The translations under genes and the position numbers were made by a program. Source: Secundilactobacillus collinoides DSM 20515 = JCM 1123 (GTDB taxonomy: Bacteria; Bacillota; Bacilli; Lactobacillales; Lactobacillaceae). Taken from it: DNA of 24,000 nucleotides. Shown here piece after piece: positions 1 to 9,245 of the stretch (position 1 is its first letter; every line of letters starts with the position of its first letter). The DNA lies in assembly GCF_001435975.1 (NCBI RefSeq), contig NZ_AYYR01000022.1, positions 1 to 24,000 of the forward strand, given 5' to 3'. Under the pieces are notes generated by a model. It worked only from the letters and a program-made list of their open reading frames with translations. It made no database searches and was not told the origin of the DNA.

Positions 1-40
1 AAAATATGCCCTGTGATACCAAGGGATCAGTCTGTCTTCA

Positions 41-69
41 TACTTTCAAGTTTCAGATAATGATATAAT
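41..69 (+). promoter_or_regulatory. Candidate sigma-A promoter with an extended -10 box upstream of the MazG-like gene
   Basis: TGaTATAAT at 61-69 is a perfect TGnTATAAT extended -10. There is no good -35 (TACTTT at 41-46). It lies ~120 nt upstream of the ATG at 188. Confidence 0.35.
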
Positions 70-187
70 TAATGAAAAAGAAAAATGATGATTTTATCTG
101 TACCATACACTAAAGATAGAACAAGAAATGCAGGGTGCCTGCAATACTTTTTACATTAAAAAAGTAATAATAGGTGAGGTTTTAAAG

Positions 188-511
188 ATGGAATATGAAG
201 AAGTTATTCAAGCGTTAGTTGATTTTAGAAACAAAAAGCAGTGGCAAGAATATCACACATTTCCTGCATTGGCGCGCGCTTTATCAGTCGAAGCGACAGA
301 GGTCAATCAATTGTTTTTATGGCAAGATAAAAGGCCTGACGAAGAACTATTACAAAATCAACAACTCGTACAAAATTTAAAGATGGAGTTGGCTGACACT
401 TTAACCTATGCATACTATATGTGTGAAAAATTAGGAGTGGAACCCAACGATGTCGTGACCGAAAAGCTGGAAATTAATAAAAAGAGACATTGGAAATTCG
501 ATAAAGAATGA
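188..511 (+). CDS. MazG-like / DCTPP1 (RS21-C6)-like all-alpha NTP pyrophosphohydrolase, 107 aa
   Basis: I chose the internal ATG at 188, preceded by GGTGAGG, over the ORF-track start at 128. The EXXE-x28-EXXD metal-binding signature is intact (EATE ... ELAD). The segment FRNKKQWQEYHTFPALARALSVEATEVNQLFLWQ resembles the DCTPP1 core (F..ER.W.QFH.PRNL.LAL.GEVGEL.ELFQWK). The size is typical of the family. Confidence 0.8.
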   Translation: MEYEEVIQALVDFRNKKQWQEYHTFPALARALSVEATEVNQLFLWQDKRPDEELLQNQQLVQNLKMELADTLTYAYYMCEKLGVEPNDVVTEKLEINKKRHWKFDKE

Positions 512-571
512 TAATGGATAATCTAACGAGACTCTTCTCTTAATAGTAACGTGGACAGGTGGCAAATCAGA

Positions 572-2326
572 ATGACAAGCATAAATCAACCAATAATTAA
601 AAAAATACCGTATGGGAAAGATTGTCTTAAAAAAATCAACGAGAAGAACAATCAGGCCGTCGAAACATACATCCTGAATTTTCCAACTGTATATATCGTG
701 AGCCAGAATACGACTAAAGCTGGAACAACAGCCGCCAAATATGAAGTGTATGTTGGAGAGACAAACGATATTAATCAAAGAACGGATCAGCATTTAAATA
801 CGGATGTGAAACCAAATAATTCTTGGGACAAATTTCTTAAAAACTCGAATAGCAATCTTTACATTATTGGTCATGATCACTTTAATAAGTCGCTAACCAT
901 GGATGTTGAGAATCGTTTAATGCTTTATTTAAGTAGTGTACCCAATGTTATAAAAGTAGATAATCGAAGAGAAAACGAGCAAAATCATTATTTTCCAGAA
1001 AAAGAAGCCTCACTTATATTTTCAAAAATTTGGGCGAAACTTCAGCAGGACAACAGCACCTTATTTCCGGTTGAATCAGTTATTAGAGATTCTGCAATTT
1101 TTAAGGCATCTCCATTTCATAAGCTAACAGATGAACAATTTCAGGCTCAGGGGAAAATAATAAACTGCATTCATAAAGCTATGCAGAATGAGACTGAAAA
1201 CCAGTTAATTCTGATCGAAGGAGCTGCAGGTACTGGTAAAACTGTGCTCTTGAGCACCATTTTCTATGCTGTGAGTCAAATTAAAAAGAATAATAGTCAC
1301 AACCAGACTGAATCAGTCTCAACTAGTCTTTTAGTCAATCAAAATGAACAGTTAAAGGTTTACAATGACATTGCTCAAAAACTCGGAATTGAAAAGAAAA
1401 AGGGAGAGGCTGTGATGAAGCCAGCCACTTTTATTCATAATTTTGAAAAAAAAGGTGAAGCGAAGTAACAAGCATTAGTGGACGTTGCACTTGTAGACGA
1501 AGCCCATCTACTATGGACACAAGGGACTCAGGGGTATAGCGGCGAAAACGAGCTGGCAGATATTCGGAAACATTCGAAGATTACATTAGCGATATTTGAT
1601 CCGCAACAAGTTTTGAGTAATAAAGGCTATATTGAATCAGAGGATTTTGAAAATGCTAGAGAAGAATCTAAGCGACAAAATAATTATATTACTCTAAAAA
1701 AGCAAATGCGTATTCAAGCATCTAAAGAGACTGTTGACTGGATAACAAATTTTGTCTATAAAGGAGAAGTAAGGCCATTCAAAAAAGACGAAATTTACAG
1801 TTTGAAAATATTTGATGATGCTGAAGCAATGCATCAAGCAATTAAAAATCAAAATACAGATTTTGAGAATAGCGGCCTATCCAGATTGGTAGCAACTTTT
1901 GATTGGGCATATACTGATGGGAAAAAGAATAATAACAGAGCTGATGGTAGATGGGTGGTAAACGCAGGAAACCTAACGTTACCTTGGAACAGCACAAAAG
2001 GGCAACTTCCTTGGGCTGAACGACCAGAAACAATTGATGAAATCGGATCAACGTTTACTATCCAGGGATTTGATCTTAATTATTGTGGGGTTATACTGGG
2101 ACCATCAGTTACATATCGGAAGGGTAAAGTTCAAATCATTTCCAAGAATAGCCAAGACAGTCATGCGACTGATAGAAGAATGTTAAAGTCGGGTGAATAC
2201 AAAGACGTCAGCAATGAACTATTATTGAACCAGTTGAATGTATTGATGACTAGGGGCGTGCATGGGCTATACATTTATGCGGTAGATGATGAGTTGAGAA
2301 AAGAATTGCATGCTCGTTGTGACTAA
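572..2326 (+). pseudogene. GIY-YIG nuclease domain + DUF2075-type P-loop NTPase/helicase-like protein, interrupted by one in-frame TAA (1466-1468)
   Basis: ORFs 551..1468 and 1478..2326 share a frame (1478-551=927, divisible by 3), separated only by TAA plus 3 sense codons (..KKGEAK*QALVDVALVDEAH..). N-terminal GIY-YIG-like motif: YIVSQ...YEVYVGETNDINQRTDQH. Walker A (GAAGTGKT) lies in the first half and Walker B/DEAH (LVDEAHLLW) at the start of the second. The C-terminal part is typical of DUF2075 (FTIQGFDLNYCGVILGP ... LNVLMTRGVHGLYIY). Likely start is ATG 572, preceded by AGGTGG. No usable RBS precedes GTG 1478. Confidence 0.8.
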
Positions 2327-2338
2327 GGAGTAGTTATT

Positions 2339-2770
2339 ATGAAACATCCAAAAAGTTATGACTCTGACAATTCAACTAGACAGCGAATGTCTAACGTACA
2401 TCTTAAGGGAGGCAAGGGGGAACAAATCTTAGCTAAAGCACTATGGCAAAACGGATACCGATATCGTAAGAACGACAAGTCATTGCCGGGTTCTCCAGAT
2501 ATTGCAGTTTTGAAATATCATCTTGCCATTTTTGTTGATGGTGAGTTTTGGCATGGGTATGACTGGGAAAATCGGAAAAAACGATTAAAAAGAAATAGAG
2601 ACTATTGGATCAAAAAAATAGAAGAAAACATGGCTCGGGATCAAAGAGACGATGCGTTATTGATTGAAAAGGGATGGCAACCAATTCATTTTTGGGAAAA
2701 AAAAGTTTTGAAAAATACTGATTATTGTGTTTCTCTCGTAGATTACTATGTAAGGTCGGAAAATCGTTGA
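2339..2770 (+). CDS. vsr: Very-short-patch repair endonuclease (T:G mismatch endonuclease), 143 aa
   Basis: Family hallmarks: RQRMSNVHLKGGKGEQILAKALWQNGYRYRKNDKSLPGSPDIAV...AIFVDGEFWHG. AAGGAG RBS at 2325-2330 lies 8 nt before the ATG. The gene starts 12 nt after the DUF2075 stop, so it is probably co-transcribed. Confidence 0.9.
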   Translation: MKHPKSYDSDNSTRQRMSNVHLKGGKGEQILAKALWQNGYRYRKNDKSLPGSPDIAVLKYHLAIFVDGEFWHGYDWENRKKRLKRNRDYWIKKIEENMARDQRDDALLIEKGWQPIHFWEKKVLKNTDYCVSLVDYYVRSENR

Positions 2771-2792
2771 ACTAGAGATGCAAAATTCAATA

Positions 2793-2801
2793 TGGTATAA
2801 T
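2793..2801 (+). promoter_or_regulatory. Possible upstream promoter (extended -10 TGgTATAAT) in the vsr-methylase spacer
   Basis: TGGTATAAT at 2793-2801. No convincing -35. It would form a tandem promoter with the one at 2840-2868. Confidence 0.3.
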
Positions 2802-2839
2802 TCGAACATACATTCGTCTAAACTATATCAAAGTAAAAG

Positions 2840-2868
2840 TTGATCAATTTTCATTTTTCTAGTATAAT
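2840..2868 (+). promoter_or_regulatory. Near-consensus sigma-A promoter for the methyltransferase gene
   Basis: TTGATC (2840-2845), a 17-nt spacer, then TATAAT (2863-2868). It sits ~35 nt upstream of the GTG start at 2904. Confidence 0.7.
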
Positions 2869-2903
2869 GGCAAAAGTAAGTATTTGGCGAGGAGAGAAAG
2901 TAA

Positions 2904-4166
2904 GTGAAAAAAAGAGTAGCTGAGTTATTCGCTGGTGTGGGCGGTTTTCGAGTTGGTATGGATAAACTCGATACTGGTTGGAATTTTGTATATGCTAATC
3001 AGTGGGAACCAGGTAGAAAAGCCCAATATGCTTTTGATAATTATGTAAAGCATTATGGTAAAAGTGAAAATAATACAAATGTAGATATCAATAAAGTTGA
3101 TAAAACAACAATTCCTGACATAGACTTATTGGTTGGGGGATTTCCTTGCCAAGACTATTCGGTTGCACATTCTGGAGCTAAGGGTATCGAAGGGAAAAAG
3201 GGTGTTTTATGGTGGGATATTCGTGACACGATTGAAGCAAAAAATCCACCTTTTGTATTACTCGAAAATGTTGATCGATTATTGTCATCTCCAGGGAAAA
3301 AACAGCGTGGACGCGATTTTGGTATGATTTTGTACACGCTTCACCAGCTAGGATATGACGCGCAGTGGCAGATGGTGAATGCTGCTGAATATGGATTCCC
3401 TCAAAGAAGAAGACGGGTCTTTATTGTTGCATACCGAAATGATACTAACTATGCTAAATCTATTAGTGATAAACGGTGCTTAAACGAGGCCTTAGTAAAA
3501 GATGGTATTATTAACAACACACTGAACATTGATCCTAACCTCACCCGTAATAAGGAAGCAAGGCTTGACGGTTTTATTGATATAGTAGATTTCTCAGATA
3601 ATTTTTCCTTCCACTTTGAAAATACCGGAATCACACGTGGAGATGATATTTTCAGTGCACACTATGAGCCTAAGTACGATGGCAATTATACGGTGTTAAA
3701 TGACATTGTTTTAGACCATGCTGACGATGAAAAACTGTATCTGGACGATGCTAAAACTAAGAAGTTTGAGTATCTTAAAGGTGCTAAAAAAGAAGAACGA
3801 ACTTCGAGCACAGGCTTTTCATATTACTATACCGAGGGCGGTATGTCCTTTCCTGACCCGCTGGATCGACCTGGACGGACAATGTTAACTTCAGAACATT
3901 CAGTGAATAGAAGCACCCACGTCGTTCGTGATAAAGAGAATAACAAACTTAGACTTTTAGATCCAATTGAAGCCGAACGATTACAAATGTTTCCAGATAA
4001 TTGGACAGAAGGAATGCCAAAAAGTTCAAGGTACTTCATGATGGGAAACGCTCTGGTAACCGGCGTCATAACAGAAATTGGTCGTAGTTTGGATAAAATA
4101 TTTGCAAATGAGCCTGACGACCTTACTCTAAATGAGACACTTAGTGCAAATCATGTGGCCCACTAA
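2904..4166 (+). CDS. DNA (cytosine-5)-methyltransferase, M.Sau3AI-like (predicted GATC -> GATm5C), 420 aa
   Basis: m5C-MTase motifs in canonical order: I FAGVGGF, IV GGFPCQDYS, VI ENV, VIII QRRRRVFIV, X GNALV. Long stretches match my recollection of M.Sau3AI (ANQWEP.RK, GKKGVLWW, ENVDRLL.SP..QRGRDF, TEGGMS, RTMLTSE.S.NRSTH, PIEAERL..FPDNWTEGMP). GTG start with a GAGGAG RBS. Confidence 0.9.
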   Translation: MKKRVAELFAGVGGFRVGMDKLDTGWNFVYANQWEPGRKAQYAFDNYVKHYGKSENNTNVDINKVDKTTIPDIDLLVGGFPCQDYSVAHSGAKGIEGKKGVLWWDIRDTIEAKNPPFVLLENVDRLLSSPGKKQRGRDFGMILYTLHQLGYDAQWQMVNAAEYGFPQRRRRVFIVAYRNDTNYAKSISDKRCLNEALVKDGIINNTLNIDPNLTRNKEARLDGFIDIVDFSDNFSFHFENTGITRGDDIFSAHYEPKYDGNYTVLNDIVLDHADDEKLYLDDAKTKKFEYLKGAKKEERTSSTGFSYYYTEGGMSFPDPLDRPGRTMLTSEHSVNRSTHVVRDKENNKLRLLDPIEAERLQMFPDNWTEGMPKSSRYFMMGNALVTGVITEIGRSLDKIFANEPDDLTLNETLSANHVAH

Positions 4167-4175
4167 ATTATATAT

Positions 4176-4225
4176 AAAAACTGTGATATTCGATTTTGCT
4201 GATTATTGAATATTACAGTTTTTTT
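4176..4225 (+). terminator. Rho-independent terminator after the methyltransferase gene
   Basis: An 11-bp stem (4181-4191 pairs with 4208-4218, one G:U), a 16-nt loop, then T7 at 4219-4225. An A-run precedes it. Confidence 0.8.
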
Positions 4226-4259
4226 GCACATTAGTATAGTTAGATAATGCTATAAACAA

Positions 4260-4289
4260 TTGAAATGTACCTGCTAAGTTAAGTATAAT
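4260..4289 (+). promoter_or_regulatory. Sigma-A promoter for the restriction endonuclease gene
   Basis: TTGAAA (4260-4265), an 18-nt spacer, then TATAAT (4284-4289). AGGGGG RBS lies just before the TTG start at 4314. Confidence 0.65.
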
Positions 4290-4313
4290 GACAATAACGC
4301 AGGGGGTATTGCA

Positions 4314-5786
4314 TTGAAATCAGATTATGATAGTAAAGAAAAAGTTCACAAACGAGCTGAGGAAATCTTGGGTATTCCTTTTGGTGAATTAGCAAAAGAT
4401 GTCAACTCAAAAAAGACCAAGAACAGTGTTGGAGATCTCTTTGAGTCATGGTTCGGTAAAGCCAGAGATTCCGCTAGCGAACCTGATTTAGGGGTGTCTG
4501 AATTGAAAGCAACACCATATATTAAACGTAAGGGTGGGCAGTATAGCGCTAAAGAAAGACTCGTTCTCAATATCATCAATTATCAGAACCTAGCTGATGA
4601 GGAATTTGAGACGAGTCATTTTTACCATAAAAACAAAGTTATTGAATTGGCATTTTATGAATATATTAAGGATAAACCACGATCTGAATGGACTTTTAGT
4701 GAAGTGGCTTTGTTTGAAATGGCGAAAAACCCTACAGATTACGCAATCATTCGAAACGATTGGGATAAGATTCAAAGATACGTTAAGGAGGGGCATGCCG
4801 AGAATCTAACGGAAAGTTTGACTGATTACCTGGCGGCTTGTACTAAGGGTGCTAACGCACAAAGTTTAAGGACTCAACCTTATTCGGATGTTAAGGCTAA
4901 GCAACGTGCCTTTTCTTTGAAGACAAGTTATATGACCCAATTACTCAGAGAATATATTCTTGGAGACAAAAAATCCGATTTTATCTTAAAGAACTCACGA
5001 GAGGCTGCAGACAAATCCTTGGCAGATGTTCTAATTGAAAAATTGTCACCATACTTTGGTCAAAACTCGATTGATATATGCACAGAGTTAGGCGTTAAAA
5101 TTAGGCCCGGTATTAAAAATTATAATAGTTTATTAATTCGCGCCATGCTTGGTTTTGACACTAGCAAAAAATCTGGGCTTGATAACATTTCTGAGTTAAA
5201 TAAGGCTTCCTACTTGATTAAAACTGTTCAATTTGATTATGCAGGTACAAACAGTGAGAGCATGTCTTTTCCGTCATTTAAGTTTAAGGATTTAGTTCAA
5301 GAACAGTGGAAAGATGAAGATAATAATCCATCTGCTAAATTGAATATTCTAATGTCTGAAAGTACATTTGTTTTTGCGATATTCCAGCATAGTTCCGTAG
5401 ATAATGAAGAGTCAGATAATGTGTTTAAGGGAATCAAATTCTATAAAATGCCTCAGGCCATTATTAATAATGAAATTTACTGTGTCTGGCAAGATACTAT
5501 TGACACATTAAACGAAGGCGTGAAGCTTTGGCGTGACGGCCGCGGAATTCGAAATAATTTTGTTAACGCGGGTGATCAACGTGTTATTCACGTTAGACCT
5601 CATGCAGGTTATGCTAGTTATATCGATAATGGGTACGCTAATGAATTACCTGTGCCTTCTAGGTGGTTGGGCGACGAAAAGGACAAACCGAGACAGTTTT
5701 CATCACAGTATATGACCAATCAATGCTTCTTTTTGAATAACAAATTTATTCGTGATATTGTTAGAGATTTGGTTCAGATTCATTAA
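4314..5786 (+). CDS. Type II restriction endonuclease, Sau3AI family (tandem MutH-like domains; predicted GATC), 490 aa
   Basis: Length matches Sau3AI (~489 aa). The N-terminal half matches my recollection of Sau3AI (SVGD.FE.WFGK..DS...PD, ELKATP, KERLVLNIINY, IELAFYEY, CTKGANA.SLR.QPYSD.KAKQRAFSLK). The C-terminal half also matches (ESMSF.FKF..L..E.W, FKGIKF..MP, NNFV, HVRPH). It is adjacent to an M.Sau3AI-like gene. Confidence 0.88.
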   Translation: MKSDYDSKEKVHKRAEEILGIPFGELAKDVNSKKTKNSVGDLFESWFGKARDSASEPDLGVSELKATPYIKRKGGQYSAKERLVLNIINYQNLADEEFETSHFYHKNKVIELAFYEYIKDKPRSEWTFSEVALFEMAKNPTDYAIIRNDWDKIQRYVKEGHAENLTESLTDYLAACTKGANAQSLRTQPYSDVKAKQRAFSLKTSYMTQLLREYILGDKKSDFILKNSREAADKSLADVLIEKLSPYFGQNSIDICTELGVKIRPGIKNYNSLLIRAMLGFDTSKKSGLDNISELNKASYLIKTVQFDYAGTNSESMSFPSFKFKDLVQEQWKDEDNNPSAKLNILMSESTFVFAIFQHSSVDNEESDNVFKGIKFYKMPQAIINNEIYCVWQDTIDTLNEGVKLWRDGRGIRNNFVNAGDQRVIHVRPHAGYASYIDNGYANELPVPSRWLGDEKDKPRQFSSQYMTNQCFFLNNKFIRDIVRDLVQIH

Positions 5787-6136
5787 TATACGTCTTTTTG
5801 GACAGGTATTAGTTAAAAATAAGAAAATCGCGACAAAAATTGTGTTGGTTTATAATCTTTTTTAGATACACATACTTAAATCATACTCAAAAAATGTATC
5901 TTATGATTTAAAAACATCTCTACCATTTAAAATCGGTTTCTGTCTTGATTTTTAGTGCATAGAAGAGAAAATATTCGGAAGTGTTGAATTGTTAAAAACA
6001 ATTAGATCAAATCCAATAAAATATACAAAAAGACCGAACAATATTATTGACTTAACTTTTTTTTAGATTGCAAATTGTACTGAAAACAAAGAATAATTGC
6101 ATACTAAAAAAGAAAACGCTTACTGGAGGGCTAATC

Positions 6137-7878
6137 TTGGTAGTAATTCCACCTAAAATGACTGATCATAATAAAATTGTAAATATGCGACGGCAATTGG
6201 CACAAATAGTTGCTAGTTACCATAATGATTATGATGTTTTGGCTGAAATTTTACAGAATGCGGTTGATTCAGTTAAACTGAGATTGGAAGAAAAAAGAAA
6301 GGGTATCAACCCAAAATATTAATTCAGTTTAATTCTGATAATGAAGAAATTAAAGTTACCGATAATGGGGTAGGAATGAATAGTGAACTACTTTCCGATG
6401 CAGTCCAGCTTTTTGAAACTGGTAAAAAGGAAGACGATAATTCAGTTGGGGAGAAGGGAGTTGGACTAACATTCTCAATATTTCAGAGTGATTTTGCTGA
6501 AATAGATAGTTTTGACGGGACAGAAAAATCCAGGCTTGTTGTGAAGAATGCAAGAAAATGGTCAAAAAGTACTACTGATGAATCATTAGACTTACCAATC
6601 GATACAGACACTGAAATTAAAAAGCGTGGGACCACGGTTATTTTAGGGCAATTAATGGCAGGGGATTTATTTAATTTAACCTTTAAGTAGTTGTAATTTT
6701 TAATTCGTACTAGAACTTCAATTGGTGATACGAAAAGAATGATGGGACCAAAAGGAAACCTCCCCAATGTACATGTAGAATTGACCTATATCAATAGTTA
6801 TCAGGTCAAAAATGCAATTTCAAAAGAAATTAAATTTGAATATTACTGGTTAGACGATATTAAAGAGCCCAATCCTAATTTGATTGTCAGTTTGGAGAAT
6901 TTTAAAAGAATTTTCAAAAAAGAAGGAACTAACCAACGAGACTATGAAAAAATGGCCTATTTAAAAAATCGGTACGTAACGGATAAAGGCCGTTTGACAA
7001 TTAACAATAAAAAGGTTGCGTATGTTGTCTATTTTGCTTCTTCAGCTGATAGTAATGAAAAACAATCAGAACAGGCAGATTTAATAAATTCAAAAGACCG
7101 TACAATAGTGAAGGTTGAACCTAATTATGTAAAAATTCAAAACGGCGTTACTTTGAGTGTAAAAGGAATGCCTACTGGAATAGAAATTAGTACAGATCAA
7201 CTCAAAGGTGCACTTGGTTACGCTCGCAGGATGTTTATGCTTATTGAAGATGCAGGTGTAAACTTTGATATCGGAAGAAAAACTATTTCGTCAGGTCCCA
7301 CTCTAAAACGATATAAAGAGGTAGCAAGCGATGAATATAGAAAGTATTTGGATAATGTAATGCCTTGGGTGAAGGATGAAAGAGCAAGAGTACCGCAGAA
7401 CGAAACCAAGGATGTTACATTTAATAAGCTCCGTGAGTGTCCAAAGATGATGTATGCTGAGAATACTGATTTTATAATAAAGCCAAGGCAAGAAGAATCG
7501 GTTACTGGTATCTTCTTTGAACAGCTAGGTAAAGGAAAATTTCCGGGAGTTGCAGTATATGAACATGGCTATGCAAATATCTATGATTTATATTTTGCTT
7601 TTCAAGATGGAGACAAAGTTATTGAATTTAAGCAAAGAATAGCAAGCTTTTTAAAGAATCTATCAGCTAATAATAAAAATTGGAATGAAATTGATTATCT
7701 TGTAATGTTTGAACTGAAAGATAAAGATAAACAGGATTTACAAAAAAAACATATAATTATTGAAAGTGTAAAGCCAACTATTAACAATCTACATGCAACG
7801 TATACGTTGTATCGTGGTAACGACATAAGAACGATACAATTAATCGAGTTGAAAAATATCATATCCATGAAAATATAA
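6137..7878 (+). pseudogene. GHKL (Bergerat-fold, MutL/MORC/HATPase_c_3-like) ATPase with a possible C-terminal PD-(D/E)xK-like module; disrupted by a -1 frameshift and two in-frame stops
   Basis: Three ORF fragments (6068..6322 in frame 2; 6376..6690 and 6739..7878 in frame 1). Motif I is EILQNAVDS in fragment 1. Reading frame 1 back from 6376 gives ..KKKGYQPKILIQFNSDNEEIKVTDNGVGM (motif II DNGVGM), so the frame switch falls in the A-rich run at 6288-6300, consistent with loss of one A. Motif III is GEKGVGLTF. In-frame TAG at 6688-6690 and TAA at 6694-6696. C-terminal pattern: EESVTG...IYD-x12-EFK. Likely start is TTG 6137 (GGAGGG RBS at 6125-6130) or ATG 6158. Confidence 0.75.
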
Positions 7879-7889
7879 AAAGTCCGGAT

Positions 7890-9056
7890 TTAGAAATCAT
7901 TTGATGAAGATAGGATATCTTTTGCAACGTATTGTCTGTGGTATTGAAGGTATGTTTGGTGGCCTTTAAGTTGCGCGAAAGTGCGTGAAGTATCTAAATG
8001 TAATATTTTTAAGTCTTTTTTTGTTAATAAATTGGACACACAAAGATGATTATGAGTGTCGAACGAAATTAGACCTTTATCAAAAAGTTTATCATGAATT
8101 GCGCAGAGCAAGAGCCCATTATTAGAATCGATTTTTTCTTGGTCATTAGAGTTAGCCCAAGGTTTAATATGACTTGCAATCAACAATTTAGAACAATCGA
8201 GTCCACAAACAAGGCACCTATGCTGTTTTTGCAAAAGAGTATGTCGAAATTGGCTTTGAGTTATGCGTTCTTTTGCTTTGACTGTGGCTTCATTTTGACC
8301 ACCGGACAACGAAAAAATCTTATTCATAATTTTTTTATTAGAACTAATAGGTTTTAAATGAATGAAATTTGACCAACTTTGCGGAACGATGCTGTTTTTG
8401 GCAGATTTTCCCTCTTTTAGATGGGTAAGCCATTCTTTTTTAATTGAGGTAGTTTGATCAATGTAAAATTTTGCCTCATAATTTGGTATATTGTTTTTTT
8501 CTCTAATGGATTTCAAACCATTGGGTATTGGGTAAGCGAGTCCCATGTATTCAACACGATTATCTGCAAACAACTTAAAATATAAAATTGGAAATGCTTG
8601 GGTTGACTGTGCAAAATTTTCAGAAAATATTTCGTCCAAATAGAAATTACCCTTTTTGGGGGTATTAAAAATATTTTGGGAAGCTTTGTTATCACCATGA
8701 TAAGTTAACAAATGATTTCCAGAGTCAAAGTCGTCTGACCAAATATTTGCTTTAGCTTTTTCTGCGGATGTAATGACTAGAAATGCGTGTTCCGTGCTGT
8801 TGCTTCGCTTTGATTGGGGCGCTAGGTTAACCATTCTAAAGCCACCGTTAGTGCCAGTTGAAGTGTGTAAATTGTTTTTTTTCCTGTCAAGTTTATTCTC
8901 GGAAATGAAATTCTTCGACATTTTTGTTGTTGTTAATGCGTGAAGCACGTCGCTATTTTTTAAGTTGATTCCGGCATAAATAGTCTCCGGAATTAAATCG
9001 CAGCTCTGTAGCTCGGATGTTGATAATTCAAGTTTTTTTAATGTAGTCAAAATCAT
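7890..9056 (-). CDS. HNH (HNH_2-type) endonuclease with an SRA/PUA-like N-terminal domain; candidate Type IV modification-dependent restriction enzyme, 388 aa
   Basis: C-terminal HNH motif: CLVCGLDCSKLLIASHIKPWANSNDQEKIDSNNGLLLCAIHDKLFDKGLISFD. The N-terminal segment AFLVITSAEK...WSDDFDSGNHLLTYHGDNK...FPILYFKLF..NRVEYMGLAYPI follows the SRA/YDG pattern (vLs.ggYeDD.D.G..l.YtG.GG ... Y.G.Y.v). AAGGTGG RBS lies upstream of the ATG at 9056. The HNH call is strong; the SRA call is tentative. Confidence 0.75.
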   Translation of the reverse strand: MILTTLKKLELSTSELQSCDLIPETIYAGINLKNSDVLHALTTTKMSKNFISENKLDRKKNNLHTSTGTNGGFRMVNLAPQSKRSNSTEHAFLVITSAEKAKANIWSDDFDSGNHLLTYHGDNKASQNIFNTPKKGNFYLDEIFSENFAQSTQAFPILYFKLFADNRVEYMGLAYPIPNGLKSIREKNNIPNYEAKFYIDQTTSIKKEWLTHLKEGKSAKNSIVPQSWSNFIHLKPISSNKKIMNKIFSLSGGQNEATVKAKERITQSQFRHTLLQKQHRCLVCGLDCSKLLIASHIKPWANSNDQEKIDSNNGLLLCAIHDKLFDKGLISFDTHNHLCVSNLLTKKDLKILHLDTSRTFAQLKGHQTYLQYHRQYVAKDILSSSNDF

Positions 9057-9245
9057 TAGCCACCTTCTATACTTATTAATCTACAATACAATAAGTTATG
9101 GCCTTAACGTAAGGTGAAAAATAATTATGTATAAATAAAAATATTCAATTTTTAAGGCCGAGCTTGTAACGATTTAATGGATTAAGAATGATTATTTTCC
9201 ACATCTGCTTTTTATAATGGAACTACAAAGGTGGGAGGATACCAT

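Follow-up and report, generated by a model that had tools for sequence, protein, structure and literature searches.

The first 24,000 nucleotides of contig NZ_AYYR01000022.1 of Secundilactobacillus collinoides DSM 20515 (here called the window) begin with three genes, between positions 188 and 2770, whose close association raises the question of what function they might share. A preliminary description of this DNA had reported three tightly spaced genes on the same strand, encoding a MazG-like pyrophosphohydrolase, a GIY-YIG/DUF2075 protein, and the mismatch endonuclease Vsr. Two readings had been offered: an anti-phage module composed of the first two genes or a damage-control set for 5-methylcytosine (m5C) that accompanies a neighboring methylase. 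The open reading frames (ORFs) are present as claimed, at 188 to 511, 572 to 2326, and 2339 to 2770 (features of the window lie on the plus strand unless stated otherwise). Positions 188 to 2326 represent a degenerate version of a two-gene cassette that is widespread, conserved, and unnamed and that consists of a MazG gene and a gene for a GIY-YIG/DUF2075 nuclease-helicase. Judged by comparison with known systems, the intact cassette is likely, with some reservation, to serve in defense, as a previously undescribed GIY-YIG version of the Nhi-type nuclease-helicases that is accompanied by MazG.

The MazG and nuclease-helicase gene pair

The second gene of the window (572 to 2326) comprises 584 codons, one of which is a nonsense codon, and matches the Pfam families PF01541 and PF09848. 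Its readthrough protein, referred to below as the helicase-nuclease, has thousands of full-length relatives of 557 to 630 amino acids, with identities of up to 53%, mostly in the Lactobacillales. When one genome of each species was scanned with a pattern, at least 406 species were found to encode such a relative, and the best 80 loci were analyzed. The carriers span the Bacilli, Clostridia, and Actinobacteria.

The co-occurrence of the two families outside this genome, named as a check in the preliminary description, was examined in both directions and was confirmed. Of the 80 closest loci of other species, 66 have a MazG-like gene that directly adjoins the helicase gene and shares its strand. 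The MazG-like gene precedes the helicase gene in 28 of these paired loci, as it does in the window, and follows it in 38; overlaps of the two genes are frequent. A divergent orientation, seen in one genus, represents a third arrangement. Among 300 Lactobacillaceae genomes, about 63 encode a full-length helicase-nuclease, 39 of these with an adjacent MazG gene. Conversely, 38 of the 48 strong MazG hits in the same genomes adjoin a full-length helicase-nuclease gene; the remaining hits comprise one that accompanies a distant DUF2075 protein, two at contig ends, and seven that stand alone. No third conserved gene was found among the 852 called genes clustered from the 80 loci, and no MazG-helicase fusion was found among the best 150 of 4,888 representatives of the MazG subfamily (95 to 358 amino acids, some with tandem duplications). 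Because adjacency has been kept through three arrangements, there is good evidence that MazG and the helicase-nuclease form a functionally linked, conserved cassette, in which the link is preferential and not obligatory.

A related association was observed on a 4.6-kb plasmid-like contig that also carries a DUF536 gene (L098:1778-3798, minus strand). There, a MazG gene whose product is 62% identical to that of the window directly follows a gene for a distant DUF2075 protein. The latter is 25% identical, has an N-terminal part of 180 amino acids without a Pfam match, and matches the PADLOC model AbiO at 2.7e-16. The partnership of MazG therefore reaches beyond the GIY-YIG form.

The MazG/DCTPP1-like gene of the window (188 to 511) is intact and encodes 107 amino acids. 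The ATG at position 188 is the start codon, and relatives align from residue 1. The protein matches PF12643 (MazG-like/all-alpha NTP pyrophosphatase) with 33.8 bits (cutoff, 27), and its best matches in the PDB are the pyrophosphatase 4qgp (2.6e-13), human DCTPP1 (3.5e-5), and mouse DCTPP1 (7.8e-5). These matches bear out the likeness to the DCTPP1/RS21-C6 core that had been noted before. MazG shares with this group the family PF12643 and the spacing of the acidic ligands, whereas its sequence similarity to DCTPP1 is low (E value, 3.5e-5). The EXXE-x28-EXXD site, previously described as intact, can be read from the translation as E35-x2-E38 and, after 28 residues, E67-x2-D70, which together represent the metal-binding quartet. 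A phage "pyrophosphatase" PHROG is also matched, at 6.5e-9.

DCTPP1 prefers deoxycytidine triphosphate (dCTP) modified at C5, and its cytosine pocket is formed by a sandwich of Trp47 and Trp73, with selectivity provided by the filter residues His38 and His51 (PMC13291643). Comparison of 66 MazG sequences, namely, the window copy and 65 helicase partners, revealed eight residues that are invariant in 66 of 66: E35, E38, E67, and D70 and, in addition, W19, H23, W45, and Y74. The last four are the counterparts of Trp47, His51, Trp73, and Tyr102 of DCTPP1, so MazG keeps the Trp-Trp sandwich as well as the equivalents of His51 and Tyr102. In contrast to DCTPP1, every sequence compared has Leu, Ile, or Val in place of His38, and the subgroup that includes the window protein has His in place of Tyr129. 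Since the metal ligands and the equivalents of the four DCTPP1 residues are invariant, MazG is read as catalytically active, with a base pocket that is largely of the cytosine type and with dCTP or C5-modified dCTP as the putative substrate.

Analysis of the helicase-nuclease revealed the fusion of a GIY-YIG domain to a DUF2075 NTPase with both Walker motifs, as had been proposed. The GIY-YIG nuclease domain is encoded at 674 to 977 (residues ~35 to 135). The match to PF01541 is marginal in the window protein (23.1 bits; cutoff, 22.6), and PF01541 is precomputed in most of the homologues. In the alignment of homologues, Y41, Y60, G62, R70, H74, E113, and N131 are conserved. The catalytic Tyr/Tyr/Arg/His/Glu/Asn set (Y41, Y60, R70, H74, E113, and N131) is complete and invariant. 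The two halves of the gene match PF09848 (SLFN-g3 helicase, formerly DUF2075) with 47.8 and 243.6 bits; Walker A (GAAGTGKT) is located at 1220 to 1243 and Walker B (DEAH) at 1496 to 1507. An AlphaFold2 model of the protein was obtained with a predicted local distance difference test score (pLDDT) of 82.6 and a predicted template modeling score (pTM) of 0.82. The Foldseek matches of this predicted structure are superfamily 1B (SF1B) helicases, namely, Upf1, Senataxin, Dna2, SLFN11 (E value, 1.3e-7), nsp13, RecD, and Pif1. A sequence-profile search of the PDB yielded only matches at the level of the P-loop, such as ORC1, and NCBIfam and PHROGs contained no informative family for the protein. The window's own genome also encodes two short DUF2075-only paralogues of about 390 to 410 amino acids that lack GIY-YIG (C95:211-1389, minus strand, and C93:29609-30736, plus strand). 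Such a short DUF2075-only form is present in most of the Lactobacillaceae genomes searched.

Relation to known systems and candidate functions

The nuclease-helicase Nhi of Staphylococcus epidermidis (SERP2475), a validated single-gene anti-phage enzyme, combines a PD-(D/E)XK nuclease with DUF2075, and its closest predicted structural homologues are Dda, Upf1, and DNA2 (bioRxiv 10.1101/776245). Nhi-like has also been validated as a single-gene anti-phage nuclease-helicase (bioRxiv 10.1101/2022.05.11.491447). The cassette protein resembles Nhi in its N-terminal nuclease and DUF2075 helicase, with similar size and domain order; in a predicted helicase fold that resembles Upf1 and DNA2; and in the occurrence of its family in staphylococci and other Firmicutes. 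It differs from Nhi in that its nuclease is of the GIY-YIG instead of the PD-(D/E)XK type, and, whereas Nhi is a single gene, the cassette helicase-nuclease usually occurs together with MazG.

Further parallels were found for both partners. The cassette helicase shares PF09848 with the group III Schlafen proteins (SLFN11, SLFN5, and SLFN13), as is also reflected in the Foldseek match to SLFN11 (E value, 1.3e-7). Unlike these, the cassette protein is bacterial, has a GIY-YIG N terminus, and lacks the Schlafen N-terminal RNase domain. On the side of MazG, defenses based on nucleotide depletion employ dCTP deaminase or dGTPase. These defenses and predicted systems that contain MazG (DefensePredictor, PMC13092281; PUA-Cal-HAD, 10.64898/2026.01.15.699771) resemble the cassette in that the anti-phage function relies, or is predicted to rely, on a deoxynucleoside triphosphate (dNTP) hydrolase. 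The cassette MazG, with its predicted activity, differs in that it is small, looks constitutive, and accompanies a nuclease-helicase and is not a sensor-gated, stand-alone effector. MazG is listed by DefensePredictor as a predicted, unvalidated defense domain (PMC13092281), and the fusion of DUF2075 to GIY-YIG is mentioned in passing elsewhere (PMC6765204). In the literature searched, no paper described the pairing of MazG with GIY-YIG/DUF2075, and none contained both DUF2075 and MazG.

By analogy with Nhi, the nuclease-helicase of an intact cassette would be the effector, which would unwind invading phage or plasmid DNA in an ATP-driven manner and nick or cut it. Its MazG partner would hydrolyze dCTP or C5-modified dCTP to the monophosphate and might thereby either starve phage DNA synthesis or exclude modified nucleotides from the host DNA. 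Each of the partners may also be able to act alone.

The distribution of the cassette is patchy, with the full-length form in about 63 of the 300 Lactobacillaceae species, that is, about one species in five. On the helicase tree, Alloscardovia is placed within the Streptococcus/Granulicatella clade, Clostridia within Bacilli, and Companilactobacillus with the Enterococcaceae. Copies are carried by Lactobacillus and Bacillus plasmids. Only four weak matches were found in phage genomes, and the cassette is therefore not typically phage borne. In several genomes, the cassette has defense systems as neighbors. S. folii carries McrBC in this vicinity, and both L. fungorum and L. zeae carry class 2 DISARM. 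The L. fungorum cassette, next to the DISARM genes, is in addition flanked by genes for a NOV_C-domain protein and a 189-amino-acid protein of an unknown family (L086:7044-7493 and L086:9776-10345).

A gene pair for a Nudix protein and a SauUSI-like Type IV enzyme was found immediately adjacent to the MazG cassette at four loci and on the L. plantarum plasmid NZ_CP028230. On this plasmid (L093:3348-6645), the Nudix gene (PADLOC candidate PDC-S07, 2.4e-46) is followed by a gene for a Type IV enzyme with PLD, helicase, and DUF3427 domains (PDLC03658, 1.6e-262). The pair recurs in the loci L093, L001, L051, L042, and L102, and in L102 the order is Nudix, Type IV enzyme, and MazG, without a DUF2075 gene. 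Like the cassette, this pair joins an NTP pyrophosphohydrolase to an ATP-dependent nuclease-helicase, although both of its proteins belong to unrelated families. No SauUSI-like enzyme was found in the window's own genome. Taken together, the plasmid copies, the horizontal transfer, and the defense neighbors (McrBC, DISARM, and Type IV enzymes) favor a defense role.

Several observations weigh against a defense role or against the pair as a unit. The helicase-nuclease is unpaired in 14 of the 80 loci and in about 24 of the 63 carriers of the Lactobacillaceae sample; the MazG-less state corresponds to at least six independent changes on the helicase tree, and a homologue on a B. cereus megaplasmid (34% identity) has no MazG gene within 6 kb. 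Stand-alone MazG genes (7 of 48) lie amid housekeeping genes. Only about 3 to 5 of 55 nonredundant flanking genes are defense-like, most others being metabolic, transport, or housekeeping genes, and synteny of the cassette locus extends over nine Levilactobacillus species, suggesting prolonged vertical inheritance. The PADLOC model of Nhi, PDLC02372, did not match the full-length protein or two intact homologues at E values of up to 10; the same model weakly matched the helicase part of the two short DUF2075 paralogues of this genome (2.2e-8 and 6.7e-16). In PADLOC v2.0.0, MazG had no match, and the helicase-nuclease matched only at the level of the P-loop or GIY-YIG (mad8, PtuA, PDC-S14, and AbiO at 1e-5). 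An identity as AbiO was rejected, as the match spans only Walker A (2.6e-5). No experiment on any member of the cassette family was found in the literature searched. The genomic behavior is thus mixed, leaning toward an accessory, mobile gene set. Of the anti-phage reading in the preliminary description, the conserved two-gene pairing (66 of 80 and 38 of 48) stood, whereas the anti-phage role is compatible with the genomic behavior but is not matched by a PADLOC model, as the PADLOC check envisaged in that description was run and no model covers either cassette protein.

The mixed neighborhood is relevant to an alternative in which the pair would serve in repair and not in defense: MazG would clear a noncanonical dNTP from the pool, and the GIY-YIG helicase would remove the same lesion from DNA. 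RdgB and endonuclease V provide an analogous pairing, and GIY-YIG is also the incision domain of UvrC. The mostly housekeeping nature of the flanking genes, the stable synteny in Levilactobacillus and Carnobacterium, and the stand-alone MazG copies amid HAD hydrolases are in line with such a function. It is less easily reconciled with the occurrence of the cassette in only about one species in five, with transfer across phyla and copies on plasmids, with local clustering with restriction-modification (R-M), Type IV, and DISARM genes, and with an architecture that parallels the anti-phage enzyme Nhi. Overall, a repair function is considered unlikely.

Within a defense role, a narrower function of MazG can be envisaged, namely, that of a pyrophosphatase with specificity for C5-modified dCTP (5-methyl or 5-hydroxymethyl) that would work with nucleases in a defense directed at modified cytosine. 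MazG could then starve phages with hypermodified-cytosine DNA. It could also bar salvaged modified nucleotides from the host DNA and avert self-cutting by modification-dependent nucleases, as a guard against autoimmunity. The conserved DCTPP1-type pocket fits this proposal. So does the repeated location of the cassette near McrBC, SauUSI-like, AspBHI-like, GmrSD-like, DISARM-m5C, and Sau3AI-m5C systems, of which SauUSI-type enzymes depend on modified cytosine (PMC6765204). The Nudix-Type IV-MazG order without the helicase in one genome also fits. Such specificity is put forward tentatively, as a possibility with a rather low chance of being correct.

Alternatively, MazG might keep a toxic nuclease-helicase in check, as a safety catch or regulator, by controlling a local nucleotide or alarmone level that gates the nuclease. 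E. coli mazG, located downstream of mazEF, and the nucleotide-gated Gabija system can serve as models. In either order, the two genes lie close together and frequently overlap, which suggests translational coupling, and MazG is intact in the window despite its dead partner. Nevertheless, the helicase-nuclease persists without MazG in 14 of 80 loci, after at least six independent losses, and the nuclease is therefore not lethal alone. MazG also occurs beside an unrelated Type IV enzyme and on its own, and a role as a safety catch is regarded as very unlikely.

The interrupted gene, vsr, and their surroundings

The nonsense codon of the helicase-nuclease gene is an in-frame TAA at 1466 to 1468, between Walker A and Walker B, and the two halves of the interrupted gene share one frame. 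The TAA lies within a six-codon insertion in a poorly conserved linker just ahead of Walker B. Alignment revealed that this insertion is unique to the window copy and absent from three same-genus orthologues. Among 81 sequences, the window protein deviates at 4 of the 137 columns with a conservation of 95% or more, compared to a median of 1. Its terminal branch length is 1.02 versus a median of 0.13, and it is 4 to 8 identity points more diverged than predicted from the divergence of its MazG partner. Because of the unique insertion with its TAA, the deviations in conserved columns, the long branch, and the excess divergence, the helicase-nuclease gene of the window is probably a pseudogene, and these features point either to a moderate age of the pseudogene or to relaxed constraint on it. 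The nonsense codon would have inactivated the nuclease-helicase in this genome, with MazG left intact.

The gene might still be alive if the TAA were an assembly error or if the product reassembled from two parts, residues 1 to 298 and a second part restarted at GTG 1478. The lesion is single, all but 4 of the 137 highly conserved columns are kept, and the stop falls in a variable linker. It splits, however, Walker A from Walker B inside one P-loop domain, it is part of an insertion private to this copy, and GTG 1478 lacks a well-spaced ribosome-binding site. Together with the long branch and the divergence above the MazG-based prediction, this makes a functional gene highly doubtful.

The third gene, vsr (2339 to 2770), encodes a T:G mismatch endonuclease (TIGR00632, 128.8 bits; cutoff, 97.85; PADLOC Vsr). 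As described previously, it starts 12 nucleotides past the stop of the DUF2075 gene, and an AAGGAG sequence overlaps that stop. It is followed by genes for a C5 DNA methylase (2904 to 4166; PF00145, TIGR00675; PADLOC MTase_II) and a Sau3AI-family endonuclease with a MutH fold (4314 to 5786; NF040973 at 5.7e-136; PADLOC REase_II). Because no Vsr homologue was found in the 80 related loci, vsr is placed outside the conserved cassette and is assigned functionally, on comparative grounds, to the adjacent Sau3AI-type m5C R-M system. It is co-oriented behind the dead gene and probably cotranscribed with it; it would thus serve the R-M system next door, probably on the transcript of the dead gene.

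This assignment bears on the second reading of the preliminary description, in which the methylase would belong to a single functional unit with MazG, the helicase-nuclease, and vsr, the pyrophosphatase removing 5-methyl-dCTP and Vsr repairing deaminated m5C. The three genes of the window follow one another closely and immediately precede the m5C methylase gene, a Sau3AI-type R-M system again lies beside the cassette in Granulicatella and Streptococcus, and MazG largely keeps the cytosine pocket of DCTPP1, an enzyme that favors C5-modified dCTP (PMC13291643). Furthermore, among the 11 genomes with both a paired cassette and a methylase, 5 encode the methylase less than 10 kb away from the cassette, a proximity that is the clustering expected of defense islands. 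A C5-methylase was found in 3 of the 80 loci, all from one Granulicatella/Streptococcus lineage and again within a Sau3AI-type R-M system. In the 300 Lactobacillaceae genomes, PF00145 is present in 16 of the 57 MazG-positive genomes (28%) and in 59 of the 243 MazG-negative genomes (24%), that is, without an association at the genome level, and it is absent from all six same-genus MazG carriers. MazG follows the helicase-nuclease and not the methylase. With no Vsr in the loci and a methylase rate that is equal with or without MazG, an m5C housekeeping set fails as a general function and is the least probable of the accounts considered here.

In the Granulicatella/Streptococcus lineage (L047:5351-5882, L062, and L043), overlapping ORFs for a small protein and an XRE-type helix-turn-helix (HTH) protein are located between the Sau3AI-type R-M system and the DUF2075-MazG pair. 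These could represent a controller or a toxin-antitoxin-like pair. The HTH pair of Granulicatella was rejected as a conserved third component of the cassette, as it is lineage specific.

The window begins at the contig end, with the upstream DNA outside the contig, and its positions 1 to 9230 form a low-GC block (GC content, 0.32 to 0.39, versus 0.42 to 0.51 in the core DNA). Downstream of the R-M genes, this block contains two ORFs without a Pfam match (6376 to 7878) and, on the minus strand, a gene for an enzyme with AspBHI_N and HNH_2 domains (7890 to 9056). The gene for this enzyme, which is of an m5C-dependent type, lies at a distance of 3.7 kb from that for an m5C methylase that looks active; the coexistence of the two enzymes presumably rests on differing sequence contexts. 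Regarding the leader, the preliminary description had placed the three genes behind one extended -10 promoter. The motif itself, TGaTATAAT at 61 to 69, was read in the sequence and is a candidate promoter: no -35 element accompanies the motif, the consensus promoter scan did not list it, and a GC-rich hairpin with a T-run (129 to 152) falls between it and the MazG start codon. This hairpin is terminator-like on both strands, with a z-score of -2.0 for the leader fold, and could be the terminator of an upstream unit beyond the contig end or an attenuator.

Implications for the genome and the cassette family

The copy of the cassette in this genome is a dead passenger within a defense island, and the vsr annotation should go with the Sau3AI-type R-M system. 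For the family, the consequences depend on the role of the intact cassette. If it protects against phages, a widespread two-gene relative would join the Nhi class, with the helicase-nuclease carried by at least 406 species. MazG would then be the first DCTPP1-like nucleotide-sanitizing enzyme wired to a bacterial immune nuclease, and vertebrate DCTPP1 and Schlafen-type helicases would be linked to a bacterial conflict system. An anti-phage role would also provide a concrete route to study how modified-nucleotide pools are policed during infection.

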